Source: Eledone cirrhosa
Taxonomy: Eukaryota
Direction: 5' to 3'
NCBI GenBank assembly: GCA_964016885.1
Contig: OZ024740.1
Location: 283,402,001-283,466,000, forward strand
Length of the DNA: 64,000 nucleotides
Shown: in pieces, positions 7,047-56,532 of the stretch
Layout of the letters: every line of letters starts with the position of its first letter
Position numbering within the stretch: the first letter of the stretch is position 1
The notes under the pieces: model-generated
What the model was told of the DNA's origin: nothing
The model's input: the letters and a program-made list of their open reading frames with translations, nothing else
Databases searched by the model: none
Position numbers and translations under genes: made by a program

Positions 7047-7135
<89 letters not shown>

Positions 7136-7216
7136 GTATGTATGTATATATATACATACTACTGTATGTCTGTATACATATATGTATGTACGTATACATA
7201 CATACATACTTACAAT

Positions 7217-7264
<48 letters not shown>

Positions 7265-7306: not shown

Positions 7307-7351
7307 CATATATAATATATAAGATCAAAAGATTGTTAAAAGAGTTCCATG

Positions 7352-7422
7352 TATTTTATTATGCGCATTTCAAAAACAAATATCATCATGCAATGACATT
7401 TGTGTTTTCATCAGATAAAATA
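7352..7422 (-). ncRNA. Type I hammerhead ribozyme (family B, inverted arm)
   Basis: tattttat CTGATGA aaacacaaat..atttgttttt GAAA tgcgca TA ataaaata: 8-bp perfect stem I, long stem II, palindromic stem III. Confidence 0.85.
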
Positions 7423-7529
7423 GGAAGACATGATATGAAGGTTAAAAACACTTGTGGATAGTGCAGTTTTAAATCAACATATCAACTGCACTATCCACAA
7501 GTGTTTTTAACCTTCATATCATGTCTTCC

Positions 7530-7600
7530 TATTTTATCTGATGAAAACACAAATGTTATTGCATGATGATATTTGTTTTTGAAATGCACATAATAAAATA
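7530..7600 (+). ncRNA. Type I hammerhead ribozyme (family B, long arm)
   Basis: tattttat CTGATGA(7538-7544) stem II GAAA(7581-7584) tgcaca TA ataaaata. Confidence 0.8.
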
Positions 7601-7727
7601 CATGGAACGCTTTTAACCATCTGTTGATCTTATATATTATGTATACTCCCGTCCTACAAACTGTAGAGAGAGTGCTTCTTATCCGGTATCTGCATTGCTT
7701 TATTTTACTACAATAAAACTCACCTCC

Positions 7728-7986
<259 letters not shown>

Positions 7987-7997
7987 GTATATATATA

Positions 7998-8393
7998 AAT
8001 GTAAGTATGTATGTATGTATACGTACATACATATATGTATACAGACGTACAGTAGTATGTATATATATACATACATGCACACATATATATATATACACGT
8101 ATCGGTTTACCGAACATTTATTATAATGCTCGGTTTGTTTGTTTGTAAACAAACAAAGAGCCCGAATTACGTCACCTTTTTGTTCAACACTGACACGGGA
8201 ACGATGTACTAGTTTCAAGCTTATTAGCTATCGTCAGCATCGTATACCTTCCTGCCAGATGGTTGAACGTCTGAAAGTATATACTTTCCTTATACATATT
8301 AACGGGTGAGCAGCCTCTGTATATATATAGATACTACTGTACGTCTGTATACATATATGTATGTACGTATACATACATTACATACTTACATTT
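7998..8393 (-). mobile_element. TA-embedded HHR element, family I, with inverted copy of its 3' end
   Basis: 8331-8393 is the reverse complement of about 7998-8060; a third copy of this end lies at about 7155-7217; HHR at 8201-8243. Confidence 0.75.
8201..8243 (-). ncRNA. Minimal type I hammerhead ribozyme (family I)
   Basis: acgatg CTGACGA t-agct-aata-agct-t GAAA ctag TA catcgt: 6-bp perfect stem I, 4-bp stem II, palindromic stem III, GUA site. Confidence 0.9.
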
Positions 8394-8466
8394 AAGTAAG
8401 TGCCGTACTAAGAGTGAGAAATGAAATTTCGTTTCATTCTATTCCATTTATATATATATATATATC

Positions 8467-8513
<47 letters not shown>

Positions 8514-9553: not shown

Positions 9554-10340
9554 TCTTCTTCTTCTTCTTCTTCTTCTTCTTCTTCTTCTTCTTCTTCTTC
9601 TTCTTCTTCTTCTTCTTCTTCTTCTTCTTCTTCTTCCACAGTGTCCTATCAGAAGTAGCCATATCCAATTGATCCGACTGGATCCTCAACAGAGACCAGC
9701 TAAACTCTGCGAGGTAACTTAACCATTATGCCCGTGGTCTACTTCTGGGTCTCTTTTGCCGGTTGCCTACGCCCGTAGGATCCTTCAAGCGATTCTTACC
9801 TTAGACATTCTAGCCACATGTACGTAGTATCGGAGCGGTGTTCTCTCTATTCTGAGAGGTAGTGACTCTACCTGGAAGTAATCCCCTAGAAATGCACCCT
9901 ATAGAGTAACGTTACTCCAAATACCCTTCGGAGGAACTCCATTTCGGCCGCTTATATTCGCGATCGTATTCCTTCGCTCATTACCCTAGATTTATGACCA
10001 TATGTAAGAGTAGACAAGAAAACCTAATTGAAGATAATGAGTTTGGCTTTTACACCAACCATCCTTCTGATAACCGAATGCTGAAGTTGGCAGCAACTCC
10101 TGTCCTTCTTGCATTTAATTCAGCCTCACTCCTGCTTCATCTTCTCCAACTCCTTTAGTGAAACTCCACTCAAATGCAGATTGCGCTGCACAAGCTGTCC
10201 TGAGAAGACGAATGTCTTCTTCTGAGTCAGTACCATGTCGTCAGCATATTCCAGCCAAGGTATCCTACACCCGCCGGTCTTAATACTCCTACCAGCCAGG
10301 CTGCGCATGTCAATTCCATGCGAGAAGTTTATGTTCATAA
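9554..10340 (-). mobile_element. Decayed 5'-truncated LINE (RTE-like) with (GAA)n tail
   Basis: ORF 10126-10338 contains the RT motif WLEYADDMVL; a (TTC)n tract at 9554-9636 sits at the expected 3' end. Confidence 0.7.
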
Positions 10341-10514
10341 ATTTATTTATTTATTAATAACAGTCATAGGTGAACGTGCAGTAACCATGTATTTTTTTTT
10401 CTCCTAGACTGTTTGTAAAAAGCGAGAGAATTATCCTAAGACTAGTGGCCTATGCTTATTTCTCTCTAAACATAGTTCGCTTAATGCCTCCGAACATTTT
10501 CACACTCGTTAAGA

Positions 10515-12474: not shown

Positions 12475-12673
12475 GGAAAATAGTCAGGATCCCGACGGCT
12501 GAGTTCCGGCCGTTTCGTCAGCTATTTCTGAACTGTTTAGAAATAGCTGTGGAAACGGCCGGAACTCAGCCGTGGGGGTCCTGACTTTTTCCTATTACCC
12601 ACTCTACTATCCATAGTATCGAGTACTCTGGTGTGTTATGGTCCACCTGGTTCCTTACCACACTTCCTTCGTT
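12475..12673 (+). mobile_element. TA-embedded fold-back element, family A copy 1 (HHR 3' half)
   Basis: About 55-bp inverted arms plus a 3' extension TTACCCACTCTACTA...CCTTCGTT; arms read GAAA cggc..gccg TC ggg. Confidence 0.85.
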
Positions 12674-12690
12674 ATATATATATATACATA

Positions 12691-13011
12691 TTAGAAAGTG
12701 AGGTTATTTTTACAAAATGAAAAATAACCGGGGTGTCCTACACGAGTGAAAGTATAAGGAAAAAAGATGAAATCGTAATGCAACTGGAGTCTTATTTAAA
12801 AATATATATATATATTTATTTGGTTCCTTTGCCGGTTGCGCAGTTCTTATTCTTTACCGGTTTCTCAGATGTGAGAAAAACCACAGACCCTCCATCTCAA
12901 CTCTACTTTTGAAAAGCAGAAGAACTGCGAAACCGGTAAAGGAACGAAATAAATATATATATATATTTTTAAATAAGACTCCAGTTGCATTTCAATTGCA
13001 TCTTTTTTCCT
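12691..13011. mobile_element. TA-embedded fold-back HHR element, family C copy 1
   Basis: Left arm is the reverse complement of the 3' part of 53467-53674; the right arm carries the HHR and stops at TTTTTTCC-TTATA. Confidence 0.85.
12906..12941 (+). ncRNA. Minimal hammerhead, U3-A8 core variant (family C)
   Basis: ctt TTGAAAA gcag-aagaa-ctgc GAAA ccgg TA aag; identical at 53503-53538. Confidence 0.7.
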
Positions 13012-13079
<68 letters not shown>

Positions 13080-13182: not shown

Positions 13183-13565
13183 GAATTCTGAATATATGTT
13201 GGTTGTTTACCGACACCTTAGTATGCAGATTTGAGCACTCGACGAAGTAGGTAGGTTGGTTTGTTTACTCCGGCGTAATGTAAAATAATTATGTCAAATA
13301 TATAAAATTTGGCTTCGTTTATTATAAATTATAGATATACTGCTATATATATTTAGGTGACAGCCATCATTGGCTGTGATCTCTTCGGGCAGTCCGAATT
13401 GGTGTGGGAAAGACACTTCAACAACATGTGTACCTGTCTTTCCCACACCAATTCAGACTGCCTGAAGAAGCCAATGATGGCTGCCACCGAAATATATATA
13501 GCAGTATATCTATAATTTATAATAAATGAAGCAAAATTTTACATATTTGACTTAATTATTTTTTA
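13183..13565. mobile_element. TA-embedded fold-back HHR element, family F
   Basis: About 130-bp inverted arms centred near 13425 plus a 100-bp left extension; HHR motif in both arms. Confidence 0.85.
13457..13505 (+). ncRNA. Type I hammerhead ribozyme (family F)
   Basis: actgc CTGAAGA agcca-atga-tggct gccacc GAAA tatata TA gcagt; the opposite arm keeps the longer stem II but has a mutated core. Confidence 0.8.
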
Positions 13566-13669: not shown

Positions 13670-15482
13670 CATGCATGCGTGCGCCGTGCGTGTGAGTATG
13701 TATGTGTGTGAAAATTAAATGTTAAAAGCACAACTAACGACGAAGTTCAATGAAGATATATGTTAGTTTCACGTTTAATATAGTAGAAAGAGACTTAATA
13801 TTTCGGACGCTAGTCCTTCTTCAGAAAATAGAATGAGAAATTAAAGAAGAAATAGAAAGATAAAGGAGAGTGAGCAAGGACAGAAACGAAAAACATTTTT
13901 TCAAGAAAAAGCAAGTCTGTTCCATTCGCCATCTCTTGGAAAACTTTTGTAAGGAGCTTTTCTGGTGTAGTAAATTCAGTTGGGCGTCTTATCATTTTTA
14001 TAGTGGGTGTATATAAGTTTTTCTAAGTGTGTGTATGTGTATGTGTGTATGTGTGTGGGTTCTTTGTTGTTTGTGTGCAAGAACTCGTGAGGATATTTGT
14101 GTATAAATTTAAGAGCGAGAGGGGGAGAAAGAGAGAGAGTAGTTTTGTGTGTGTTTGCATGATCTCTGTTGCTCCGTACAGAGCTGTGAGTGCAAGTGTA
14201 GGGGTTTATTGTCGGTATGTACAAAGCTGTGTGGTGGGAGGGAGTTCTGACCGTAACAAAGACATAGGAAACTTGAGGTCGAATGTTCGCATGTGTTTGT
14301 GTTCATACAAACATACACACATGCAAATGGACACACACATTATACACTCATTAAATTGCTATTTATAGCAGGGCTTATAACCATGTTAGTGCTGATGGGA
14401 ATATCCCATCGAAGCACACCGTACATTTTTTTGTTTTGTTTTTTTGATTGGAAATGTCGTATCTCATTGCATGTGCTTTTTCGGGGTTAATGGTGTAGAG
14501 TTGCACAACTGTTATTGATTGGTCTGCACATATATTTTGCACTCTGAAACGATCATAAACAACGGACTAATTAACTACTGCACCTTGTCTTATTTTTACA
14601 TTGTTCAACGCAGAAAAGAAAAACGTATTCAATCCCGTAACTGGAGTATATATTAACTTAATTCAGCAATCCCAAGCCAGAACCTAATTGGCTGAAACTA
14701 AAATTGTGTACAAACTGCTATGTTTCTCTTATCAGGAATCCATTTTGATTTTAAAAATAAACAAGCTTATTTGCTTGTTTTCAAATTAAATAACATGACA
14801 AATACGAAGCTGATATTCCGTGTCATAGAAGAGGGAGTAAAGTGCATGATATCTGAGATATTACACCTTTAATTCTCTAGGCGTTTATTCTACATGTTAG
14901 AAATAACTGATAGTTTCTATGAAATCCCACCATACCACCTTAAAAGAAAGAAAGGTTTAGAAAATAGCGTAGATGTACAAAACGAGTGGTCCGGCTGCAA
15001 CACTAAAATAAAAGGATGAGAACTATCGTTATCACAATCGTAATCATCAGTGTCGTCGTCTTCTTCATCATCATTACCATCACCATTGATATCGTTATAG
15101 TTATGGCCATCATCATCGATATTACTCGTAGTTGTCATCCATTCTAGTAGCAATATTTTTCGTTATTTTCTTGTTTTGTATTTAGTATTCCAGTTGTTGC
15201 AGTTATTGCGGTTAATGTTTTTATTGATGTTTGGTGATATCATATTTTCTCATCTATTTTTTTACAGTACAGAACGGCTACGTTCTTCGAGCTCCCCATT
15301 GCACAGTACAATCTCCCATCCCACACCAAGTTTTTCCAGAGATAAACTTAGTGAAGCTAGACCCATAAAATATAAAATGAAAAATACAAAAAATAAAAAG
15401 AACAAAAAAAAAAATCAAACATTAAATTTGTATTTTGAATAATGTTTTCAATCACGACAAATCTATTGGAGAAACAAAACAT

Positions 15483-17014: not shown

Positions 17015-18050
17015 ACATACACATACTCACACAGATACACATGCTCACACACATACACATACTCACACACATACACATGCTCACACACATACACACGCTC
17101 ACACACATACACACGCTCACACACATACACATACTCACACAGATACACATGCTTACATACATATACATGCTCACACACATACACACGCTCACACACATAC
17201 ACACGCTCACACACATACACACGCTCACACACATACACATACTCACACAGATACACATGCTTACACACATATAGATGCTCACACACATACACATGTTTAC
17301 ACACATACACATACTCACACAGATACACATGCTTACACACATATACATGCTCACACACATACACATGTTTACACACATACACATACTCACACAGATACAC
17401 ATGCTTACACACATATACATGCTCACACACATACACATGCTTACACACATACACATACTCACACAGATACACATGCTTACACACATACACACGCTCACAC
17501 ACATACACACGCTCACACACATACACATACTCACACAGATACACATGCTTACACACATATACATGCTCACACACATACACACGCTCACACACATACACAT
17601 ACTCACACAGATACACATGCTCACACACATACACACGCTCACACACATACACACGCTCACACACATACACATACTCACACAGATACACATGCTCACACAC
17701 ATACACACGCTCACACACATACACACGCTCAAACACACACACATACTCACACCAGATACACATGCTTACACACATATACATGCTCACAAACATACACACG
17801 CTCACACACATACACACGCTCACACACATACACATACTCACACAGATACACATGCTTACACACATATACATGCTCACAAACACACACGCTCACACACATA
17901 CACACGCTCACCCACATACACATACTCACACAGATACACATGCTTACACACATATACATGCTCACACACATACACATGCTTATGCACTCGTTCACACGCA
18001 TACACATGTATATACACACGCTCATACACATACATCCACACACACACACA
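17015..18050. repeat. 18-bp CA-derived minisatellite (CACACATACACACGCTCA variants)
   Basis: More than 50 tandem variant units; explains the 363-aa HT-repeat ORFs. Confidence 0.95.
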
Positions 18051-19173: not shown

Positions 19174-19363
19174 GGGAAAAGTATGACCCCGACGGGAGAG
19201 CTCAAGCCGTTTCGACGGCTATTTCTGGACGAGAAATAGCCGTCAAAACGGCTTGAGCCCTGCCGTCAGGGTCATACTTTTTCCTATTACCCACTCTACT
19301 ACACTAAGTATTGAGTACTCTGGTGCGTTATGGTCAATCTGGTTCCTTACCACAATTCCTTCG

Positions 19364-19365
<2 letters not shown>
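19174..19365 (+). mobile_element. TA-embedded fold-back element, family A copy 2
   Basis: Same ends as 12475-12673; central hairpin GACGGCTATTTCT-GGACG-AGAAATAGCCGTC. Confidence 0.85.
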
Positions 19366-19791: not shown

Positions 19792-20185
19792 AGATTGGCA
19801 GTATCAGTAGAGGGTCGGGCGCCATGCCTTGCAGCAAAGAGTTACGGCCCTTTATGGTCTGGGTTCAAATCCCGCCGAGGTTAACTTTGCCTTTCATCCT
19901 TACGAGGTCGATAAAATAAAGTACCAGTAATGCACTACGTAATTACTGGCCTTGTGCCAAAAGTTAGAAACAATTATTATTAGTTTAAGGGGTGGTGGAT
20001 TTGCAGTATCGGTAGAGGGTCGGACGCCATGCTTTGACGCATAGAGTTACGGCCCTTGCCATTCTGAGTTCAAATCCCGCCGAGGTTAACTTTGCCTTTC
20101 TTCCTTATGGGTCGATAAAATAAAGTACCAGTAATGCACTGGGTATTTGCTGGCCTTGTGCCAAAAGTAGAAACAATTATTATTA
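19792..20185 (+). mobile_element. Two tandem copies of the tRNA-derived SINE
   Basis: Head-to-tail copies at about 19792-19985 and 19990-20185. Confidence 0.9.
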
Positions 20186-20875
20186 GTTTAACAGTTTTTT
20201 AAGATCAGAAGATCAATGATGATTGAATGGTAGTAGCACATATCTATTACCATGACAGAAATTGAAGGTACGATTTCTCTATGAGTTCTTAAAAATATTT
20301 CCGTCCACGACCTGAATGATCCCTGTTTAGAACATTCATCTTTGCCACATACGACGGTAGTTCAGTATGGTTGAAGTGGATGTTGATCCTTGCTACGTAG
20401 ATTTGATACATCTAGACATCCTTCGTGTTTTGTTTTCATTTAAATGGGCATTTTATATAGGGTATCTGAACCTTTTAGAAATAACACTCAAATCACACTC
20501 TATTTTTCTTAAAGAGATACTGAAGAATATAATTCCTTGACAGGCTTAAAAAGACAGTAGTCATAGCGGAAATGACTGATCAAAGACACTCCAATTATGC
20601 AAATGCAAGGTTAAAGTGGATCAACGTCTTTAGATGAGCATATGGGGTGAATGAGGTATCAAAACCTGAAGCAATATCTAGTACGTATAGTATATCAACA
20701 TTGAATATCTCTTGTGGAAACAAATATATATTACTAGTTACATTCAATAGAGCGTGACCACGCCGCAGTAAAACATTTCAGAGTGAAGTATAACGATTCC
20801 ACTAACTAAGTAATCGACGTGTATTTATTTAATCTATATTTTTGTTAATGTTATTATTATTTTCAGTAGATTTAG

Positions 20876-21095
20876 GGAGTTGGATTGGCAGTATCGGTAG
20901 AGCGTTGGACAAGATGCTTTGCAGCATATAGTTACGTCCCTTTACAATCTGAGTTCAAATGACACCGAGATTAGCTTTACCCTTCATCCTTATACGGTCG
21001 ATAAAATAAGGTACCAGTAATGCACTTGGATCTATTTTATCAACGTTCACGCCGCTCCAAATTGTTGGCCTTGCACCCAAATCAGAAACCCTTAT
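20876..21095 (+). mobile_element. tRNA-derived SINE, diverged long form
   Basis: Head, B-box, core and tail recognisable. Confidence 0.85.
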
Positions 21096-22193
21096 TTTTA
21101 GTAGATTGTTAAAAGAGGAAGAGCAGTGCCCATGAGCTTGTCAGGGGTATCTTAGGCGGGTGAACGGAAGAGGTCGAGAGATGACACCAATACTTGAGGC
21201 AGAGTGGACTCCACTGATAGCAGCGGCGGACCAGGTTGATAAGATATAAAGAGTATCTGTGTAGTCATTTTACGCCCAGAAACCTTACCAAACAGTGCAA
21301 CGTATATTGTCTGATCTCTGACCTGCACCGATTGCTTCATCATGAAAGGACTTCAATTTGAAATATACAGAGGAAATTTGAGCAAATAGTGAAATCAAGT
21401 GCAGACTAATTAACAAAATGTTGTTACATTGTTAATGTAAAGTCAAGCATGACAATTCAATACGAACGGATTACGCTGACATTGGCATAGGAAATACATA
21501 GAGACCATTTCCTGATGACGATAATAATGATGATTGTGATAATTATGATGGTGGTGAAGTTAAGACGACAATTAAGATGATTATTATGCTGATGATGAAA
21601 ATGAAAACTATAATGATAATCATAATGGTGGTGCTAAAAAGATGGCGGCAACAAGGGTAATGATTACGATGACGATGACGATGATGTTTATGGTAATGAT
21701 GGTGAACAGAAAGAGTAGGATGTCTATGATGATGCGGTCAATGAAAGCATAGAAGTTAATTTCATTTATATTGCACACGTTGATGAACAAACCTTATTGA
21801 GTATTTGATCGAGATTATAATGGCAGAGGAAAATAATTATTGTTGTTAATATTATTACATTATTAATAATGGCAATAAAAATAATAATATTAATGATAAT
21901 AACAATAACATAGCTACAATAATAATTATTATAATTTTACTAATATTATTATTATTATTACTGGTATAGTTCAATATGTCATTGAAGAGGGCTCTCTCCC
22001 AAGAGAGGCCAAGATAATGTGTGGTTCAGATGTCACTGTCATGTCCACTGTTCTGTACAGGGCTAATCGAATTAACTGTCTGTTTGGCTTCATTTAAACA
22101 TTACGATAATTGGTTTAGTTACCAAAAACGATAACACTCGACTTGTGACTTGTTATATAGAATTCGAGTAGTGTAAGGTGAATAATAAATGTT

Positions 22194-22719: not shown

Positions 22720-22919
22720 ATTAAAATAACAGATTATAGTTTAAGCAAAGAATCGCTGCTTTCACCCTTAGCGGGATCTTCGGTGAAAGCAGCGATTCTT
22801 TGCTTAAACTTTAATCTGTTATTTTAATAAATATTTGCTCTACGGTTCTTATATATTTGATATATATTTATCCTTATCGAGCCCTCTTTGGATTTTAGTC
22901 TTCAAATTTATTATTATTA

Positions 22920-24050: not shown

Positions 24051-24317
24051 AAATTAAAAGATGGTTTAAAAAGTTCCATAAATTTTATTATGCGCATTTC
24101 AAAAACAAATATCATCCTGGGACGATATTTTCTCTGATGAGAACGCAACTATCGTCCCAGGATGATATTTGTTTTTGAAATGCGCATAATAAAATTTATG
24201 GAACTTTGTTATCCATCTTTTAATTTTTTCTATATATACTCCAGTTCTATATACTGTTGAGTGCTACTTATCTGATATATGCATAGTTTTATTGTTCTAC
24301 AATAAAACTCACCTCCT
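24048..24317 (+). mobile_element. TA-embedded fold-back HHR element, family B copy 2
   Basis: Same two outer ends as 7321-7727 but a shorter fold-back; HHR at 24127-24195. Confidence 0.9.
24127..24195 (+). ncRNA. Type I hammerhead ribozyme (family B copy 2)
   Basis: attttct CTGATGA gaacgcaactatcgtc-ccag-gatgatatttgttttt GAAA tgcgca TA ataaaat. Confidence 0.8.
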
Positions 24318-24330
24318 ACATATATATATA

Positions 24331-24719
24331 AAATTAGGATTGGTGCTCTGAAATAGCGATGTATACATGAATGAATGTATATGTATAGTATATTTGGCAA
24401 TAGTCTGTCTGTCTGTCTGCTTCTCTCTCTCTCTTACTCTGTTTCTCTCAATATACTGTATGTTTAATTAAAAACATTTTGAAGACCTTGCGCTATTATT
24501 TTAAAGTGGTGACTATGTCACTTCTTTTTTCACCAACAGTGTGAAATAGATCTGTCAGCTTATCTCCCTTCTTTTGCTGAAAAAAGAAGTAAGTGACATA
24601 GTCGTTACTTTAAAATAATAGCGCAAGGTCTTCAAAATGTTTTTAATTAAACATACAGTATATTGAGAGAAACAGAGTAAGAGAGAGAGAGAGAGAAACA
24701 GACAGACAGACAGACAACC

Positions 24720-25199: not shown

Positions 25200-25388
25200 A
25201 CAAAGAAAGTGTGGTAAAGAACCAGGTGGACAATAACGCACCAAAGTACTCAATACTTAGGGTAGTAGAGTGGGTAATATGAAAAGAGTCAGGACCCCGA
25301 CGGCTGAGCTCCGGCCGTTTCGACAGTTAGATCCGAACTAAACCAGTAGTATACTGGAGTTCAGCCGACGGGGTCCTGACTCTTTTCC
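25200..25388 (-). mobile_element. TA-embedded fold-back element, family A copy 3
   Basis: Reverse orientation of the 12475-12673 structure with a different centre. Confidence 0.85.
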
Positions 25389-31200: not shown

Positions 31201-31339
31201 CTATTCTGGTGACAGGAACAGCACGAGCAGTATGTTCTTGCCATATTTTCGCTAAGTAAAAGTGTTAAATGCATCTCCGTCGGATTCGATGATGAAGATT
31301 CAGTTTCTCGATCAATTTAACTACTTGCATTATTGTATT

Positions 31340-31725
31340 AGCGGTGGATTGGCAGTATCGGTAGAGGGTCGGAAACCATGCTTTGCAACAAAGAGTTACG
31401 TCTCTTTATGGTTTGAGTTCAAATCCTGCCGAGGTTAACTTTGCCTTTCATCCTTACGGGGTCGATAAAATAAAGTACCAGTAATACACTGGTTAATTGC
31501 TGGCCTTGTGCCAAATGTATAACAATTATTGTATTAGCGCTCAAGGTCCTTTACGGTCTGATTACAGTTCTTTACGGCCTGAGTTCAAATCCCGCCGAGG
31601 TTAACTTTGCCTTTCATCCTTACGGGGTCGATAATAAAGTACCAGTCATGCACTGGGGTCTATTTAATCGACTTTCCCCTCCCCAAAATTGCTGGCCTTG
31701 TGCCTATATAAGAAACCATTATTGT
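31340..31725 (+). mobile_element. tRNA-derived SINE followed by a 5'-truncated second copy
   Basis: Copies at about 31340-31530 and 31565-31725. Confidence 0.9.
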
Positions 31726-32181
31726 ATTAGCGTGTAAGAGGCTACATTTACGCTCTACAAAATTTCTGGAAAACTTTGATGCTGGATAAGACACAAGATA
31801 AAATCACACGTAAAAATGGTGTGTGTGGGTATATATATATGTGTGTGTGTATGTGTGTATGTATTGTGTGTCTGTGTGTATGTGTGTGAATGGGTGGATG
31901 CAGATGTGGTCATGTCATTATTTTACAAAAATATACTTTATCCACACTAGTATTTGCAAATATATTTCATACATTTTTCTGTAAGTAACATATTCGACCA
32001 TGCTTGTGATATTGGTACAAGCTTTGCTGAACCCATGCCAAACTTTCTTCGTTAAAGTTTATGCCGGTCATTCTAAATGTTCTTCGTTAAAATCTTATCT
32101 ATACAAGGATACAACGAATATATAAAGCTCCGGTCAGCCGTGCTAACATTTTTCTCTATCCTCCCTCTCTCTCTTACACAC

Positions 32182-32326
<145 letters not shown>

Positions 32327-32969
32327 ATTTGCGTTGGTATATGTGTGTGTGCTCAATAACTATTATATAATGATACAGAACAGAATGCTCCCTTGTTATC
32401 AAATATGTTTAAATTTAATATATGTGTTTCCCACCTGCATAACCCTCTCAATAAATACTATTATGGTTTCAGTTATTTGTTGTTTTGTTTTGTTTTGTTT
32501 CTTTACATCTATGCTGCTCTGATCGACAAATTAACTTGAATAAGACATAAATTAGGCCATCTATGAAAGAGTTTGTTTTTGGCATAGTCAGAGATGGAGA
32601 TGCAACGCTGTATTCCTCTTAAACCTCCGTAACTGACAGAAGGTGAGGATGTTAACTTCAGCCCTGAAACCTAGTTTTAATGTTTACCACAATGGACTCT
32701 GCAAAGGCCCAGCTAGTTGTGTTAAACCAGAGGACAACTTAGATATATTACATGATAAAAGATTAGTGCCTGTGATTATTATATTTATTAGTTATAAAGG
32801 TATAAAGTGTGTGTGTGTGGGGTGAGGGGGCAACAGGGTATGTAATGTTAACATAATTTGAGGGAACAATAGTGAAATCAATTAAGTGGAAAGTTTACAA
32901 ACAAAAGGCATAGATAAATAGATAAACTCAGTTGTTTATTTGGAACTTATGGCTACTTTGCGCTTCCCT

Positions 32970-33330
32970 TTACCATGCTTTCCAGCATAGTTACGTCCCT
33001 TTACGATCTGAGTTCAAATCCCGTCGAGGTTAACTTTGCCTTTCATCCTTACGGGGTCGATAAAATAAAGTACCAGTAATGCACTGGGTAATTGCTGGCC
33101 TTGTGCCAAACGTAGAAACAATTATATTGTATAAGGTGGATTGGCAGTGTCGGTAGAGAGTTGGACACCATGCTTTGCAGCATAGAGTTACGGTCGTTTA
33201 CGGTCTGAGTTCAAATCTACTCGAGGTTAACTTTGCCTTTCATCCTTACGGGGTCGATAAAATAAAGTACCAGTAATACACTGGGATAATTGCTGGCCTT
33301 GTGCCAAAAGTAGAAACAATTATATTGTAT
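32970..33330 (+). mobile_element. Two tandem SINE copies
   Basis: Both end in AGAAACAATTATATTGTATAAGGTG. Confidence 0.9.
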
Positions 33331-34302
33331 AAGGTGACGAAATGTCTTGAGGTTCTTATTCCAGCTATTTTTAGTGTCAAATTTATCTTACACTCTTTCA
33401 TGGTCGATTGATAAAGTACCAATTCAAGATGGTAGAATGGCAGAATCATTAGAGTGCTGGACAAGATGACTTGCGATATTCATTTTGAGGTTAAATCTCA
33501 CAGTAGCCTACCAGCCATTATGGAAGGGATTGTAGCCCTACATCGTACACACGCGTAGTTAACCAATGATAAACTTAGAGCCTATAGATTCATACATTTT
33601 CGTATAAAAAAGTAAAAAATAGACTAACTGTTCATACATGCCTCACTAGGTAGATAATAAACAGAACCACAATGATATGGTCCGAACGTGGAAAATCTGA
33701 ACTCCCACTGTCAACGCCTCAATCTCTCTCGCCCTCCCCATCTTGTCCATTATATTCAACCTTCTGAGAGCAGATAATACCTGCTGATGATGATGATCAA
33801 TAGCTCAAATCAATTTTTAGGAGATTGTTTTTTTTCTTTTTCAGATTTAAACTTCGCTTACGACTTTATTAAAGATCCCACCCCCGATTATTTGTTTTCC
33901 ATATTTTATACTTTTCCGTTTTAAATCAAATTTTCTGGACATTCCACTTGTGAAAAGTTTGCATTGTTGTCTGATGAAAATGTGATTAAATGAATTAATG
34001 AGTTAATGAAAATTTATTAGTCAAATTGCTGGTATTCTGAATCATTATTTTGATAATTGGTAAAATATGGAGTACAATTTATTGTCTGTATTAATCAAGA
34101 CAGCTGAAAAGTATTTCCTGTGTCATTATTCTCTTTAAAGCTAAGAAATTTTTCCTCAATTTAATGAAATGTCAACATCTCTTTGATAATAACATGTCTT
34201 TATGAGTTATCAATATTTTTCGTGTTATTTTCATAATTATCAACACAATTTTCGTTGTAACATCTCGTAACAAATCTTCTGTTAGTATTATTTAATATTT
34301 CT

Positions 34303-34490
34303 AGGGCGGTGGATTGGCAGTGTCGGTAGAGGGTCGGACGCCATGCTTTGCAGCAAAGAGTCACGGCCTTTTGTGGTCTTAGTTCAAATCCCTCCGAGGT
34401 TAAAGTACCAGTAATACACTGGGGTCGATTTAATCGACTTTCCCCTCCCCCAAAATTGCTGGCCTTGTGCCTGTTTAAGAAATCATTATT
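34303..34490 (+). mobile_element. SINE copy lacking the central core
   Basis: CCGAGGTTAA joins directly to AGTACCAG. Confidence 0.85.
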
Positions 34491-35154
34491 TAATATTTCT
34501 CTCAACGAGCTGTATTGTTATAGTCAACCCTTCTGATATCAACCCGCCTGCAACCGTCCCTGGTATAAAGCCATTTGTGATACAGTGTTCCATCAATGAT
34601 ATATAAGTATGTTATTACGTTATGTTCCAAACACCAGCTTCATAAATCACTGAAATGTTTAAATCATCCTCAAAATTAATTATATTTTATTAGAAATATG
34701 GTGGAGAAAAGCTTAATACAAATGTTCACTATTTTGTTACAACCATTTAGATTTCACCAGCAACCAATACGAAGATTTTAATAGATATCATATTACATAC
34801 TATATGATATTATATCAAATTACATTATCAAATAATAAAGAAATCATTATATTAAATTATATTATATTAGAAATTAAATATTCAAAAATTAAAATATATT
34901 TAATGTTTTATTTTTTATTAGAAACCATTATATTATATTATATTATATTTTATTATATTATATTATATTATGCATCATAAAAACACCAATCTGGAACGGA
35001 AAAGAGCAAGGAAATTCATAATTCGATTCATAACGCTATTTCTCGTCATAAACATTGAAGGGGGCTAGCACAACCCATAAAGATGGACAATAATCTAACC
35101 TGCTAGTGCCAAATGACTGACACATTTTCTGTGAAGATAAATTACAACTGTAAA

Positions 35155-35940
35155 AATAATTGTTTCTACTTTTGGCACAAGGCCAGCAATTACCCAGTAC
35201 ATTACTGGTACTTTATTTTATCGATCCCGTATGGATGAAAGGCAAAGTTAACCTCGGCGGGATAAAAATAATGGTCTCTGAATTAGGCACAAGGTCAACA
35301 ATTTTGGGAGGAGAAAATCGATTATATCGGCTCCAGTGCATTACTGGTACTTTATTTTATCGACCCCGTAAGGATGAAAGGTAAAGTTAACCTCGGTAGG
35401 GTATGAAATCAGAACTTAATCAACCGTAACTATATGCCGCAAATCATGTTGTTCGACGCCCTACCGATACTGAAAATCCTCCCCACCCCCAGTATTGTGA
35501 AAATAATGGTTTCTTATATAGGCACAAGGCCAGCAATTTGGGAACAGGGGAAAGTCGATTTAAATCGTCCCCAGTGCGTGACTGGTACTTTATTTTATCG
35601 ACCCCGTAAGGATGAAACGCAAATTTAACCTCGGCGGGAGGGATTTGACCGTAACTCTATGCTGCAAAACATCGCGTCGACCCTCTACTGATATTGTCAA
35701 TCCACTGCCCCACTATTGTGAAAATAATTGTTTCTACTTTAGGCACAAGGCCAACAATTTTGGGGCAGGAGAAAGTCGGTTAAATTGACAGCAGTGCATT
35801 ATTGGTACTTTATTTTATCGACCCCGTCAGGAGGAAAGGTAAACCCCGGTGGGATATGAACTCAGAACGTAAAGATCCGTAATTTTATGCCGTAAAGCAT
35901 GTTGTCTTACACTCTACTGATACTTACAAACCACCAATCT
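35155..35940 (-). mobile_element. Tandem cluster of 4 SINE copies
   Basis: Four successive GGCACAAGG...GGTACTTTATTTTATCGA units. Confidence 0.9.
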
Positions 35941-40649: not shown

Positions 40650-42590
<1,941 letters not shown>

Positions 42591-42604
42591 ATAATAGATT
42601 CTGA

Positions 42605-43053
42605 TTCAGGCACAAAGTCAGGAATTTGAAAGGAAGAGGAAAGTCGGATCAATCGACCCGAGTGCATTACTGGTATTTTATTTTATCGAACCATAAGGAT
42701 GAAAGGCAAAGCTGACCTCGATGAGTTTTGAACTCAGAACGTAAAGGGCCGTAATTCTATATCGCAAACGATGGTGTCCGACGCTCTACTGTTGCTGCCA
42801 ATCCTCCGTTCGAAAGTTGTGATTTGGACTCTAAATATAAAAACCTGTAATTAAATATCATAAGTCTATATACGTTTTTATTATTGTATAGGCTTCTCTA
42901 TATGCTGTTTATAGGCTTGTATATAGGCTTCTCTATATGCTGTTTTCAAATATATAATATAATTGTTTCTACTTTAGGCACAAGGCCAGCAATTACCCAG
43001 TGCATTAGTGGTACTTTATTTTATCGACCCCGTAAGGATGAAAGGCAAAGTCA
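42605..43053 (-). mobile_element. SINE copy (42605-42810) and SINE 3' fragment (42958-43053)
   Basis: Reverse complement of the SINE consensus. Confidence 0.85.
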
Positions 43054-44557
43054 AAATATATAATATAATGTTGACAGACATGTATCGACTTATATTTTTC
43101 AATACATATGTATAAATCCATCAATATAATTTGTGTCATCTCTACATGATAAATGGATCTCCGTCGATGTTGTCACCGAGTATTCTAACGGTTCGATAAA
43201 CTGAATTTCCCCCTCACTGAATTAGCATGAAAGTCGACGAGTATTCCTCACGAATGTTTACCTTAAATTTATCTTTGAGTAAAATGAGTGTCGCACTGTG
43301 TGAGAAAGCTGGACGTTGAATTTGCAGGTAGAGTCCATCCAACGAGCGTCCGTACAGTTTTTGTACAGCAGACATGATAGTTATTCATCTGTAGTAGTAT
43401 TAGATATATGCAGAATTAATACCAAAGCATTGCACATCTTTAGGGGAACTAAGATTACATATAAGCTTCAGTGTTGCTATAGGATTACATACAAAGACTA
43501 CGAAATCTCCAACGAACTAGAATATTGATATTAAATTGCAATGCAATAATATAGCATGCGATACCACGGTTTTCAAGCTGAATGGATATTGGGGGATATA
43601 TAAAAGAAGAGACAAATTTAAGTATAGAGAGATGGGATTAATGTCCTGTTGACAGAAATACTATTATGAACATTATACAGCATAACAAAGAAAACAGTAC
43701 ATCGTCGACTTAAGTATCTTGTTTACTTGAACATATGTTTATGTAATGTGAAGAACTATTCGAAAAAATAGAAAATAAACAGTTTTGATTCGAAAAGAAT
43801 AGATTCGGTAACAGATTTTCTATACAATAGACTAATCTGAAGAGTAAGCGAGACGATAAAGTATACATAGACTAACAGTGATATCAGTCATATTTTAAGG
43901 AGGAAAATGTAAAGATAGAATCATGAATTTTGATGGGATGAATAAGGAAAGGGATGGAAAACACTGAAAGTGAAAAATGTAAGTTAAAAGTAAAAAGAAA
44001 CGATATTCGAAGCCAGTGTAAATATAATAAGAAAAATAAAACAATAATTTTGCTAAGATCAGGAGAATATAGAAATAGTGGTAAAAGAAAATAACACTGT
44101 TTCATTCAAGGACAGTTTGTTGAATGTTATATACACCTACATGGACAAGGAAACGTATATACATACATACAATTATAACACGCACGCGCACAGCCGTTCT
44201 TTTGGTTGCTATTTCTAGCGACATTATAAGCATATCATTTAGCCCTAATATGCTATGGGAGTTTTGATCTCATAACGTTACACGTGTTTTTATTCCAGCA
44301 TGCTGCCTCAGCAAATGAAATATGTATGATTTCTTGGTCAATTTCTCTTAAATTTTGAAGGATTAACCCCTCCTGAAAAGTATGGCGGATCCTTCAATTA
44401 TTGGTGGTTCCAATAAGAATTATTCCCCATATGAAACCATGGTAAGGAAATCTATATATAAGCAAGTTTAGATAGAATATATATATTTTTTGTTTAACTT
44501 CTTTATATTCCTATAAATGGAATTTTTTCTCACATAATTTTAATATATATATAAATA

Positions 44558-44742
44558 TAATTGTTTCTACTTTTGGCACAAGGCCAGCAATTATTCCAGT
44601 GCATAACGGTACTTTATTTTATCGACCCCGTAAGGATGAGAGGCAAAGTTAACCTCGGCGAGATTTGAGATCAGATCATAAAGGGCCGTAACTCTATGCT
44701 GCAAAGCATGGCGTCAGACTTTCTACCGATACTGCCAATCCT
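44558..44742 (-). mobile_element. tRNA-derived SINE
   Basis: Near full-length reverse-complement copy. Confidence 0.9.
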
Positions 44743-47700
44743 ACGAAGCCCTTGTATATGACCGAAAAATCTTCGATCGCCTCCCCACTCATTCGATGTT
44801 TTAATTAAGCTACTATCTTAAAGATACCAACCAAAATAAATGAAATAGTGAGAAGAACGATTTCGTCTGGGTAGAGAATCAGATTCCCTATTCCCAGACT
44901 AATTAATTAATTTCCACAGCTCCACCTACCCGCGACAGTCCATGTGGAGCTGGCGTTCACAGATCATTAGGTAATGCTATTTTGCCTTACGTAATTCCGG
45001 CTAGAGGCAGCTTCATCAGCGAGGAAAATTAGCCTCTTCGGAACAAATTGGTGCCTGCTTGTTCTGGTATAAGATCACCAGTACAGTAGTAGTCCTACCT
45101 CTCTGTGTGTTGTGACAGTGATGCAAGGTTATCAGTCTGCCCCCTGCCTAGAAGATCACGTTGACACATTTTTCAAAATCAACAAAGGAAAAAAGGTGCC
45201 ACTGATATATATGTGTGTGTGTGCTTGTGCTTGTGTGTCTGGATGAGAGTGTGTGCTTGCATGTGTGTACCTGAGTGTGAGCGTGTGCGCGTGCATGTGT
45301 GTTTGTGTGTGTATTTTGGATTTTTGAAATGTTGAATTGCCATAAATATAAGCTGATTATTTTAAATAGTCCCATTATTTTTTTAATAGTTATCACAACG
45401 TTTTTGACATTGTACCATCCTGTCTTCTTCAGGTGCCTATTGTATTCGTTGACCTTTAGAGAATGTCGAACGGAATTCTTTATTCAAATCACGGGATTAG
45501 ATAGTTCTCATTCCGTTGTCCATACCCGAGAATATCCTGGGGTGTAATATTGATCAAACAAACTTCCAACTATACTTAACGATTACAAATAACCTGCATG
45601 ACCTTCATTGTCATAGGTATGTTGAAATAATGATTTCATTTAAAGATTATAGGATTCGCGTTGGGGAAAGATGTGAGAGACGAAAGCTAACATGATACAT
45701 GAATGACATGCGATGTGGCTGTTTCTGTTAGCAAACTCTTATTACAAAAGCTACAAACTGGAAGTATATTCGGACATGCAAGCTCCTCATCAACTTTACT
45801 TGATGCAATATTTCCCTAATAATTAGAACTAAATCTTTCGTTAATGTTAGATATTCAAATACCAGAGACTAGAGAAGATTTTTAAAACATAAGATGATTG
45901 AAGTACAAATCAATACATTTAAAGCGAACTATACCAAACTGTTTGTTAATGTAATATACAATACGAGGTAAAGAATCGTGAAGAACTGGAGGTTGATTAT
46001 ATAGTATAATTTGAAATTTTTGCAAGTTCACTTTAATTGTATGTGGTGAATTGTAACTTGGTCTCCTTGTGGTTAACTCATAACGTAGATTAGTAAACTT
46101 TCAATTGGTTTTTCGTCAACTGATAGTAGATGAAGACCATTACTTTGACTACCTGGTTGATTGAGATTTATGTGTATGTAAGATGGCTGGTGAGTCAGAT
46201 TTTAGCAGGGATACAGCGGCCGCATCTAGGTCAATAGTGTTCCGTGGCTTCTTTAGAAATTCCAATTGTACAGACTTTACTGTGCTCGCATTTGGTTTCC
46301 ACTGTGTTGACGGGCGACTAATACGATGTGTTGCGCCATTATGAATGAGGGTAGGGAGTAGGAACCTGTTTTGATCAGGGTGCTGCTATTCAATGCGTAT
46401 TTAAACATTGAAATAAACCCACACACGCACATACACACTCATACACAGACACACACACGCGTGTGTGCGCGCACAAACACACGCACACACACACAAACAC
46501 ACACAGACACACACATGTGTCATCTTTCTTCATTGAACCCTCAATTTTTTTATTAAATGGTATGGTTGTCGTCTTGATATATGGCGTATGTTTCGAGTAG
46601 GTAAATCTGACTGAGCCTATCCCAGTCGTTCCCAGGGAAAACAAAGAACAATGAACCTTAGTACTAGACGGATATCTTATTTGTCGATCCTGATAGGTTG
46701 AGAAGTAGAGTTGGCTCCAGTATGTTTTGAAATCAAAGAGCAGAGATCCGAAGCAAATAGAACGCAGTGTTCCGCACGACCCTCTAACTACTCTACGAAT
46801 TTAATACATATACGTTTATTTGTTGAAAGGAAAAAACACGCAATCCATTGTATAATGTTTATAGCTATATGTAAACAGGTGACGATGTACGAGTACATAA
46901 CTTTCACACACTTTCATAAAATTTGTGATGTTCCAGGTGTCTTTCATGAATAGAGATCTACCCACGTAGTTAGTAACATCGGTTCTTATTTCTGCGGTGT
47001 CATACCTTAAAAAACTACTGAATGTGGTTTATAGAAGATAGTTCACTCAGTTCTGTATGAAAGCTCACCAGACGGAATGTGTACATGTGATGACAGTTAG
47101 GTAATTCTTTAGAACTTAAGAGATATTGCAAGAGCAATATTCATTATTGTATCTAGAGATTTTCAGATAACCAACGACTACAGTTATGTAAACATGCATT
47201 AGTCCTCTCAACAGTATTCTAAGTTTAAATAGAGAGCTACAGTCCTTGGTTCCTGAGATAAAAGATAAATTTGGTAAACAGAATAAAACTTTCACTGTTC
47301 GTCATTCTGAAGAATCGCAAATGATGATTGTAAGATTCTGCTGAATACTTGGATTTTGAGATTTATGATTGATATACCATTAACACAATGTGAGTGTACG
47401 TACGGTATATATGTATGTTCCTCTAGTTTTATAATTTTGCAAATTTTTGCCAATAGAGAGTCAGTTTCTAACATAGATACAAGACACTCTTATTGGAATT
47501 TACACATTACACAATATCAATTAGCTAGATGTGTATGCATGCCTGCATGCATACATGTGTGTGCAGGTATGGATGTTATTGTATGTGTGGATGTGTATGT
47601 TTTGAGTTTTATGTGTGCATGTACATATGCTTTGTATCTGTTCAAGTGTATATGCAGTTACTAGATGCAGAATTTGGGGAATGTTTTACATATTTTTACT

Positions 47701-48983
47701 GTTCCATTAATGGATTGTATTTGTAATTTCCTAACTAATCGTGTTCCTTCTGTTTCTGTGAAGCCTAGCTTCTTAAGATTTGTATTGTATGTATGTATGT
47801 ATATATGTATGTATGCATGTATGCATATATGTACATATATATATATATACGTACATATATATGTGTCTGATCACTCGCGAAGCTGAAAGGCACAGGTGTG
47901 ATAGGTAAATGAAACAGAATAGTTCAAAGTGAAAACAAGCCCGTCTCGAATATTCGGCTCAGTGATCTGGAAATTATAGAGTTTACCATCTGACTATAAA
48001 TTTTGTCCACACCCTTTGACACAGTTATATTAGGTTATATAACGCTGAATTCGTGTCGAAACTTACAAATTCTGAGGGTTAGGGTGTTCTAAGTAGAAGC
48101 CAATATACCTACGCACAGATTCTGTTTGTTTGTTGTTGTTTTTCAGATATATCTGTAAACTCCTTAACTAAGGGTAGTAGCTCTTTATTAAAACTTAGAA
48201 AAGTTAAGAGAGAAAAGTATGGAAGTTGTTCATAATCATTCGACATGATAGGAATAGCAAGTGAATCTCACAGAAAACAAACCGAACCATCTTTCTGAAA
48301 ATTACAATTTCTATTTTTATGATATGACTGGAATGGGATAATTACGACTAATGCCCCTTTTTTTCATAAGTATTGGGTTTTCATTCGTGGAAAAAAACAA
48401 ATTTCTACAAATGTCATACTTGACAGTCCAATATATTGAATCAGTAGTACTGACAAGAAATTAAGTAACAATTACAACAATCAATCAAAAGTGTTCTAAT
48501 TATGCAATCTAACTTTTGATTACATGAATATCGGTTGACATGTATGTCTTCCCATCATCATAAATGATTGGTACAGTCAAATATTTAATAGGAAATATAA
48601 ACAATACGCGATTATAGTTTTATTCAAATGAATATAGGACACTGAGAGATTAAGAAGTTCGATTCAAATTCTTGAGGTACCAAATGCGATCCCACTACTT
48701 AATTTTTTGGATGAGTATCTTTAAACTTACCTTCTGCTTGACACAAAACGTGGATTGTGTCTGTAATTCAGACTTTCAGCATTGTTACATTGTGTGACAC
48801 CGCTTCTGATTGAGATTTATGTTAAAGGCGCATGTGTTGGAGGAATACTCAGCCATGTTATTCAAATAATAGGTTCAGTCGCGCTACTGAATATATTTAC
48901 TTTGATGAACGAACACCTTGCAGAAATAGCTACATTCAATAAAGTGGGAAATGGAATGGACCTTCATCGCTTTAGAAGTTGAG

Positions 48984-49428
48984 GCCTAGAGCTCATGCGG
49001 GGTTTGATGGTTATAACTTTGTTATTGATTTTGTCAATTGAGAGTCTCAGGACGTAGTCTAGTGCAATGATAAAGAGGAATGGAGCAAGAGTGTCACCCT
49101 GCAGCACTCCTGCTGAGATGTCAAAGAACTCAGTTGGGCCATTAGGGGTGATGATAGTGGCACTTGTGTTGAGATACAAAGCTTTAATTGCTTCCTCAAT
49201 ATTTTCTGACCACTGCCATCGTGCCACCTACGAGGTTGTGTCCAAATTAGTGCTTCGGAAACCACAAGCAGTCACTACTAACAGGGGGCGCAAGCTCTCC
49301 TACCCAGATGTCATCTCCAGAGATTCTGGTATTGAAACCCAGGACTTGGCAACGGCAATAAACGACAGACCCACGTGGAGATCAATTGTTGAGTTCATTT
49401 CGGCTGAGGCCACCGGATGATGATGATG
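48984..49428 (+). mobile_element. RTE-like LINE insertion, 5'-truncated with 5' inversion
   Basis: Minus-strand RT segment LYLNTSA..GVLQGDTLAPFLFIIALDYVLR joined near 49205 to the plus-strand ORF C-terminus (HCHR..RGRKLSYPDVI..DRPTWR) and a (TGA)n tail; 9/10 TSD AGAAGTTGAG / AGTAGTTGAG. Confidence 0.9.
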
Positions 49429-50535: not shown

Positions 50536-50538
<3 letters not shown>

Positions 50539-50760
50539 TTCAAAAGATGGTTAAAAGAGTTCCAAGTATTTTATTATGCTCATTTCAAAAACAAATATCA
50601 TCATGGGATGATATCTGCGTTCTCATCAGAAAAAATAAGGAGACATGATATGAAGCTTAAAAAACACTTGTGAGCAGTGAAGTTTTAAACCAACATATGA
50701 AAAATAAATTAAGATGGATGTATGAGATTGGGAAAAAGTGCTACAATAAAACTCACCTCT
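50536..50760 (-). mobile_element. TA-embedded HHR element, family B copy 3
   Basis: About 200-bp arm from the internal TA motif plus about 20 bp of the true 3' end in the opposite orientation; minus-strand HHR at 50567-50637 (CTGATGA gaacgcagatatcatc..GAAA tgagca TA ataaaata). Confidence 0.85.
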
Positions 50761-53220: not shown

Positions 53221-53405
53221 AGTAATAATAATAAATGTGAAGACTAAAATCTAAAGAGGGATCGATAAGGATAAATATATATGAAGTATATAAGAACCCT
53301 AGAGCAAATATTTATTAAAATAACAGATTAAAGTTTAAGCAAAGAATCGCTGCCGTTAAGCGTGAAAGCAGCGATTCTTTGCTTAAACTTTAATCTGTTA
53401 TTTTA

Positions 53406-56221: not shown

Positions 56222-56532
<311 letters not shown>

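Follow-up and report, generated by a model that had tools for sequence, protein, structure and literature searches.

Layout of the hammerhead motif

The window, by which we mean the entire 64-kb stretch of Eledone cirrhosa DNA analyzed here, has a GC content of about 34%, is dense in microsatellites, and shows no convincing genes, 18 of its 68 long stop-free frames outside tandem repeats having been scanned with Pfam. On its minus strand, positions 8243-8201 hold a complete type I hammerhead sequence motif of 43 nt, with letters and coordinates as first written in a preliminary description of the region, and cleavage is predicted for it as a dimer. Helix I consists of six Watson-Crick pairs (8243-8238 with 8206-8201), and the core (8237-8231, 8216-8213 and 8208-8207) contains all of the CUGANGA, GAAA and UH nucleotides around the three-way junction; both points had been made from the letters and were confirmed by a descriptor search. 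Helix I is open and helices II and III are closed, which is the type I arrangement, and the same search on the minus strand identifies A8207 as H17, placing the predicted cut between 8207 and 8206, in agreement with the site originally proposed for a type I hammerhead.

Helix II (8230-8217, minus strand) begins with a U·U mismatch (8230/8217), as had been noted, followed by four Watson-Crick pairs and a 4-nt loop. It can alternatively be read as four positions with a 6-nt loop that has an A at its end. The U·U takes the place of the G10.1-C11.1 pair closing helix II, which is highly conserved across hammerheads (PMC4209133). Treating U8230 instead as the bulged base of the Penelope minimal motif was rejected, as it leaves just two pairs before a C·C mismatch. 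The third element is a 6-nt palindrome at 8213-8208 (minus strand), which had been described as a palindromic ACUAGU stem III. The palindrome is indeed present, but in a monomer it provides merely one base pair capped by a 4-nt loop, and it is between two ribozymes that it would form a 6-bp helix III. The suggestion that it points to dimer-dependent cleavage is upheld as a reading of the predicted structure.

The motif had also been called the cleanest in the window, a ranking that holds only under the strict descriptor (helix I of at least 6 and helix II of at least 4), which gave this single match in the window and none in 400 block-wise dinucleotide shuffles of the 64 kb, searched on both strands. 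In another motif, at 7422-7352 (minus strand), helix I measures 8 bp, helix II is long and the palindrome has 8 nt. With looser stems (helix I of 4, helix II of 3) there are three matches in the window, and 14 of the 400 shuffles contain at least one; the core pattern without stems matches shuffles often (mean 3.67). The folding energy of the 43-mer is not significant (z -1.5; 15 of 200 shuffles equally good), and that of its 121-nt context (8170-8290) has a z of -2.7 (2 of 200 shuffles equally good).

Searches against Rfam returned no hammerhead family at E ≤ 10 for queries of 81 and 221 bases, and no hammerhead at gathering score anywhere in the 64-kb window, where the only hits were microRNA and snoRNA noise under threshold; one of these, a plus-strand snoJ33 match, was discarded (20.5 bits vs. 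a threshold of 45). The motif pattern gave no matches in the metagenome contigs and prokaryote genomes scanned, and the full pattern gave none in the viral contigs. A single 17-nt viral match was set aside as chance; no hammerhead core surrounds it.

A high-copy repeat family

The 8243-8201 hammerhead belongs to a large, high-copy repeat family, whose body in the window spans 8090-8316 (minus strand), as delimited by sequencing depth and by the loose ends of alignments. We aligned four of 11 listed sequencing runs, from three coded organisms, to 8090-8445 at a likeness of at least 80%, skipping 8343-8445 as repeat; the depth fell on 8090-8317. At this threshold the repeat is matched by 5,014 contigs of organism A (run X1; 3,044 of them at 95% or better), 1,514 contigs of organism B (run X4), and nine of organism C (run X6), as well as by 30,277 of 12.5 million raw reads from a second run of organism A (X9). 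Summed contig depth was not taken as copy number. Depth on 8090-8317 was binned, with four bins on the hammerhead and 15 elsewhere. Relative to the median of those 15, depth on the hammerhead is about 13-fold in organism B and 1.8-fold in organism A.

The 227-bp repeat body is non-coding, multi-copy and below 50% in GC, as retrozymes are, and it folds as a chain of hairpins. Downstream of the ribozyme there is an AT-rich stem-loop (8107-8130) and a (GTTT)n/(AAAC)n palindrome hairpin whose unit number varies (8134-8157). A second depth peak of organism B, at 8102-8137, lies over these short downstream hairpins.

The window copy is cut off at 8316, beyond which other copies continue, as judged from loose ends, and it lacks about 25 nt that other copies have near 8156-8169. 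It also carries private changes at 8158, 8197, 8294 and 8306, which are not found in 97-100% of the X1 depth; that at 8197 weakens the extended stem described below. The upstream continuation of the family does not occur elsewhere in the window (two weak matches vs. 2.6 expected), and the descriptor search found no second hammerhead copy of the family in the 64 kb. Among the 15 of 31 joints listed there is no unit-length head-to-tail joint; the family contigs are short.

Hammerhead motifs of this kind occur by the thousands in animal repeats. Our literature search found no paper on this particular family, although the supplements of PMC7229834 and PMC4209133 (file 1) may list it or its host.

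Extended hairpin and sequence variation

The 43 nt had been presented as a minimal hammerhead, which they are not: they form the tip of a conserved 87-nt hairpin (8268-8182, minus strand), delineated by folding and by the variant map, that extends helix I. The 6-bp helix I is followed by a 3x1 internal loop (8246-8244/8200) and then by outer stems at 8248-8247/8199-8198, 8258-8253/8195-8190 and 8268-8262/8188-8182. Because it is only the tip of this hairpin, the 43-mer alone is the wrong piece to test; the segment 8150-8300 that had been suggested for transcription includes the hairpin. Judged by its letters and predicted pairing, the hairpin arranges loop 1 and loop 2 as canonical type I motifs do, with a putative contact between the loops. 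By analogy with the Schistosoma structure, the contact would involve U8200 and, from loop 2, the 3' A. Among the variants listed there is none at U8200, and 8244 and 8223 (in loop 2) do vary. In canonical metazoan type I motifs, helix I has 6 bp, helix II has four positions, and helix III is short and palindromic (PMC4209133). The 8243-8201 sequence has this canonical layout together with what reads as a dimer-type design, and is neither minimal nor decayed.

The variant data comprise 40 of 50 variants from the four runs, and it is to these that the following counts apply. Within the 43-nt motif, variants are listed at 8204, 8223, 8230 (organism B only), 8233 (N7) and 8240. The 87-nt hairpin has 16 listed variable places, and the core and palindrome, also 16 places, contain none of them (hypergeometric P 0.027, a soft value in that ten variants are missing from the tally and the variants follow subfamilies). 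Thus the core and the palindrome (8208-8213) are variant-free among those listed in all four runs, and the hairpin variants listed affect N7, loop 2, the internal loops, or pairs for which the alternative can still pair (U·G for C-G, A-U for G·U, and G·U or U·G for A-U).

The helix I pair 8240/8204 is seen as A-U, G·U or U·G. In raw reads the fractions at its two positions agree (54/49.5% and 5.3/5.4%), which supports the U·G form, these being totals rather than read-by-read linkage. In the X1 contigs, U at 8240 has 62.5% and G at 8204 has 32.6%, and because these fractions are unequal, some copies of the family may carry a broken helix I pair at this point.

The U·U pair had been regarded as a defect to be repaired before an experiment. 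In organism A, U occupies position 8230 in 99.7% of the X1 contig depth, so the U·U is the state of the family and not a lesion of this copy. In organism B, 25% of the depth at this position has G and 23% has C (C and G, respectively, on the plus strand).

Monomer and dimer folds

The core is predicted to be locked in the monomer. In each of four lengths tried, the palindrome is paired with C3-U4-G5 (P 0.69-0.88), and the A15.1-U16.1 pair has a probability of 0.0; the locked core is also predicted for a 399-nt transcript that spans both of the flanking arms described in the next section. Two ribozymes are predicted to be able to swap strands into a double hammerhead whose helix III has 6 bp: for the 43-nt sequence this structure is calculated at -20.2 kcal/mol, vs. 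-17.0 kcal/mol for two monomers. For the 87-mers, the double hammerhead and two monomers are level (-53.4 and -53.2 kcal/mol), and a misfolded dimer is lower (-56.6 kcal/mol), all of these values coming from models that omit magnesium and tertiary contacts.

Two axolotl ribozymes provide a close comparison. In HHR_Amex1 a palindromic tetraloop caps the single pair of helix III, and 6% was cleaved in 1 h without a partner; for HHR_Amex2, whose helix II starts with a U·U, the figure was 22%. Both cleave far better as dimers (PMC7229834). The window motif has both of these features. Since the window offers no partner, cleavage of the 8201-8243 copy would need another transcript, and a tandem dimer of the kind originally suggested for in vitro work would be artificial for this locus.

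It is possible, though in our estimation unlikely, that the ribozyme works as a monomer, the weak helix III being offset by magnesium (or a protein chaperone) together with contacts between loops 1 and 2. Such a mode would be compatible with either of the main origins considered below. Newt motifs with looped extensions of helix I can cleave as monomers (PMC6155905), the 22% cleavage of HHR_Amex2 occurred without a partner, an anole Penelope hammerhead cleaved only with protein (PMC11167929), and in the 87-nt context no energetic advantage is predicted for the dimer. The predicted monomer structure argues against it, having a core lock with a probability of up to 0.88 and a helix III with a probability of 0.0, and so does the palindrome, which has no listed variant, as expected under self-pairing.

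Fold-back arms and insertion site

The repeat body is flanked by two inverted arms, 97% identical over 70 bp. The left arm (7996-8064, minus strand) is the presumed 3' end of the element; it stops inside a small stem-loop and gives way to a (TA)n microsatellite at 7728-7995. The right arm (8325-8394, plus strand) is an inverted, head-to-head copy of this presumed 3' end, located beside the truncated 5' end. Only the right arm has a tail, of about 55 nt (8395-8450, plus strand), which contains two small hairpins and runs into a second (TA)n tract (8449-8510). A third copy of the arm (7122-7218, plus strand; 94% identity) has the same end point as the left arm and likewise runs into (TA)n. Judging from one loose end, and from 270 contigs and 5,268 reads that extend beyond an end of the compared stretch, the arms are presumably part of the hammerhead family.

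The end point of the tail-less arms falls in a stem-loop at 8389-8400, whose plus strand carries a hexamer that fits the splice-donor consensus perfectly. Penelope pLTRs can contain introns.

Insertions of Penelope-like elements are characterized by 5' truncation, a truncated copy in inverse orientation at the 5' end, a one-sided tail of 30-40 nt, and a bias toward (TA)n (bioRxiv 2021.04.23.441226), and the tail has been traced to two reverse transcriptase start sites inside a stem-loop that is AC-rich (PMC11167929). The 8201-8243 locus shows 5' truncation, an adjacent inverted piece that presumably belongs to the family, a one-sided tail (55 rather than 30-40 nt), and a microsatellite target. 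Similar asymmetry is seen elsewhere. Fifteen other fold-back units were observed in the window, and in nine of the 11 that were measured, one arm stops at a microsatellite and the other continues; for the remaining two, as for the hammerhead element itself, the alignment entered repeats and gave no arm measure. Several of the other fold-back units carry other hammerhead motifs.

Putative promoter elements

A perfect 16-nt palindrome with a TATA-like center (8273-8288) lies just upstream of the hairpin. In other copies, loose ends reveal an exact octamer just beyond 8316, and a second octamer, exact or with one change, is found near 8292-8299, upstream of the TATA-like palindrome; both octamers have been lost from the window copy. 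As a lead only, the octamers and the palindrome could together constitute an snRNA-type promoter, like that which drives newt satellite 2 (PMC2220036). The two octamers also form an inverted repeat, possibly no more than the stem of a hairpin, and the octamer sequence is found another four times in the window. Retrozymes in general seem to be without promoters, according to a review (PMC7761336).

Origin of the repeat

The closest known systems are the axolotl and newt retrozyme hammerheads and the hammerheads of Penelope pLTRs, and the window motif represents a further case of a kind already described. Like the retrozymes of the axolotl and of newt satellite 2, it is a type I motif of very high copy number with a looped helix I extension and a dimer-type design; unlike the amphibian examples, it combines the one-pair helix III of HHR_Amex1 and the helix II U·U of HHR_Amex2 in one motif, with fold-back arms and (TA)n flanks around it instead of a tandem array (PMC7229834). 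It shares the type I arrangement and the palindromic helix III with Penelope pLTR hammerheads, whose copies are also mostly solo, truncated and dispersed, with an inverted 5'-truncated copy, a one-sided tail and AT-rich targets (PMC4209133; PMC11167929). It differs from them in its long, looped helix I, in the absence of the minimal-motif traits, and in that no RT/GIY-YIG frame was seen. In the Penelope minimal hammerhead a bulged base follows A9, helix II is long and has the G10.1-C11.1 pair, and helix I is short (PMC4209133). In 8243-8201 there is neither an extra base between 9 and 10.1 nor the G10.1-C11.1 pair, and helix II is not long nor helix I short. Canonical motifs have been reported in the pLTRs of Selaginella (PMC4209133; PMC11167929). 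Schistosoma Sm-alpha and Sj-alpha likewise place a canonical type I motif in a non-coding repeat that is short and very abundant and may have a promoter upstream of the ribozyme, but here there is no Rfam Hammerhead_1 match, helix III is weaker, and the promoter is putative (PMC6765202).

The explanation that we favor, and consider probable, places a complete type I hammerhead (8243-8201) within a high-copy repeat. Its cleavage after A8207 is predicted to require a dimer, and the window copy is probably an inert insertion, truncated at its 5' end, left by a Penelope-type reverse transcriptase. Source elements elsewhere would be transcribed into multimers that form double hammerheads, and cleavage of these would yield unit-length RNAs with 5'-OH and cyclic-phosphate ends. 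A Penelope-like RT/GIY-YIG protein would then copy the unit RNAs into AT-rich targets, giving rise to 5'-truncated insertions with an inverted 3' piece. The family could be either the pLTR of an autonomous Penelope-like element, toward which we lean slightly, or a non-coding, retrozyme-like passenger, which is nearly as plausible. The search near this copy revealed neither a Penelope RT nor a GIY-YIG frame, the Pfam scan covering 18 of the 68 long frames and the upstream part of the family being readable to about 30 nt. A more specific version, in which an abundant, non-coding, retrozyme-like element combines a canonical dimer-gated hammerhead, its own snRNA-type promoter and Penelope insertion scars, is in our view doubtful. 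If true, it would lend direct genomic support to the proposal that Penelope-like elements mobilize retrozymes; the identity of the enzyme that spreads metazoan retrozymes is still at the stage of a proposal (PMC7229834).

The main competitor is a classical tandem non-LTR retrozyme or a hammerhead SINE of the Sm-alpha type, in which units of 150-450 bp give multimers and circular RNAs. The window copy would then be a stray solo unit, and its inverted arms the product of a local microsatellite rearrangement. The layout of the ribozyme, which is canonical as in retrozymes rather than of the minimal Penelope type (PMC4209133; PMC7229834), fits such an origin, as does the non-coding repeat body with its chain of hairpins. 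Nonetheless, no tandem partner exists within the 64 kb, none of the 15 joints listed (of 31) is a unit-length head-to-tail joint, and the internal microsatellites and one-sided tail are foreign to retrozymes. On balance we regard this origin as a minority possibility. A domesticated, locus-specific ribozyme that acts on a host transcript is very improbable: the core of the window copy is intact, but this is expected of a young copy anyway, and the copy is one of thousands, is 5'-truncated, and carries the four private changes. A chance match to a short consensus, despite the lack of an Rfam match, the unremarkable folding energy of the 43-mer and the frequency of the stemless core pattern in shuffles, has a negligible probability given that no shuffle matched once stems were required and that the motif is conserved across a large family, with a depth peak in a second organism.

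Hammerheads in animal repeats are well described, and the motif as such is ordinary. In cephalopods, 235 Rfam hammerhead_1 matches are given for the giant squid (PMC6962438); Penelope-like elements are listed at 6.83% for the repeats of Octopus vulgaris, with the terms "hammerhead" and "ribozyme" absent from text and supplement alike (PMC13282606). The value of the present example lies first in the combination of a 1-bp helix III with a U·U-closed helix II, which are separate in the axolotl families and are here joined and kept through a very large family, making for a neat test of dimer gating. Second, a canonical hammerhead repeat with Penelope-type scars would make the proposal on retrozyme mobilization testable within one genome.

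Other repeats in the window

A second hammerhead family occupies 7322-7727 as a 310-bp palindrome with one motif per arm (7422-7352, minus strand, and 7530-7600, plus strand). In these motifs helix I measures 8 bp, helix II is long and helix III is palindromic; the right arm extends by about 97 nt. Relatives are found at 24051-24316 and 50537-50701, and the three copies end at the same internal point. A motif at 13794-13827 (minus strand) has the Penelope minimal layout, with a bulged A, G10.1-C11.1, a 4-bp helix II and a 3-bp helix I, and there are degenerate hammerhead-like cores at 13462 (plus), 604 (minus) and 45019 (minus).

At least five more fold-back families are situated in (TA)n, each with a family-specific tail on one arm. 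One of them, which has no hammerhead, is represented at 12475-12672, 19174-19364, 25201-25387 and 56322-56501; the others are at 12692-13017, at 22722-22907 and 53235-53405, at 13282-13562, and at 24450-24664.

Decayed fragments of LINE-type reverse transcriptase were observed at 48967-49417 and at 9640-10350, the latter adjoining a (TTC)28 run. One of the 18 frames scanned with Pfam, from 68 long stop-free frames outside tandem repeats, gave a weak RVT_1 (RT) match, at 48967-49227.

A repeat of about 190-230 bp with a tRNA-like head, often in local tandem runs and divided into two subfamilies, is likely a SINE. Its copies include 87-292, 19793-20190, 20849-21104, 31331-31735, 32940-33336, 34280-34495, 35149-35940, 42582-43060 and 44555-44748. 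We considered this many-copy repeat of about 190 bp as a possible hammerhead family and rejected it; it is presumably a tRNA-derived SINE resembling those of octopus. Finally, an 18-bp minisatellite spans 17015-17980, with about 54 copies and 86% matches.
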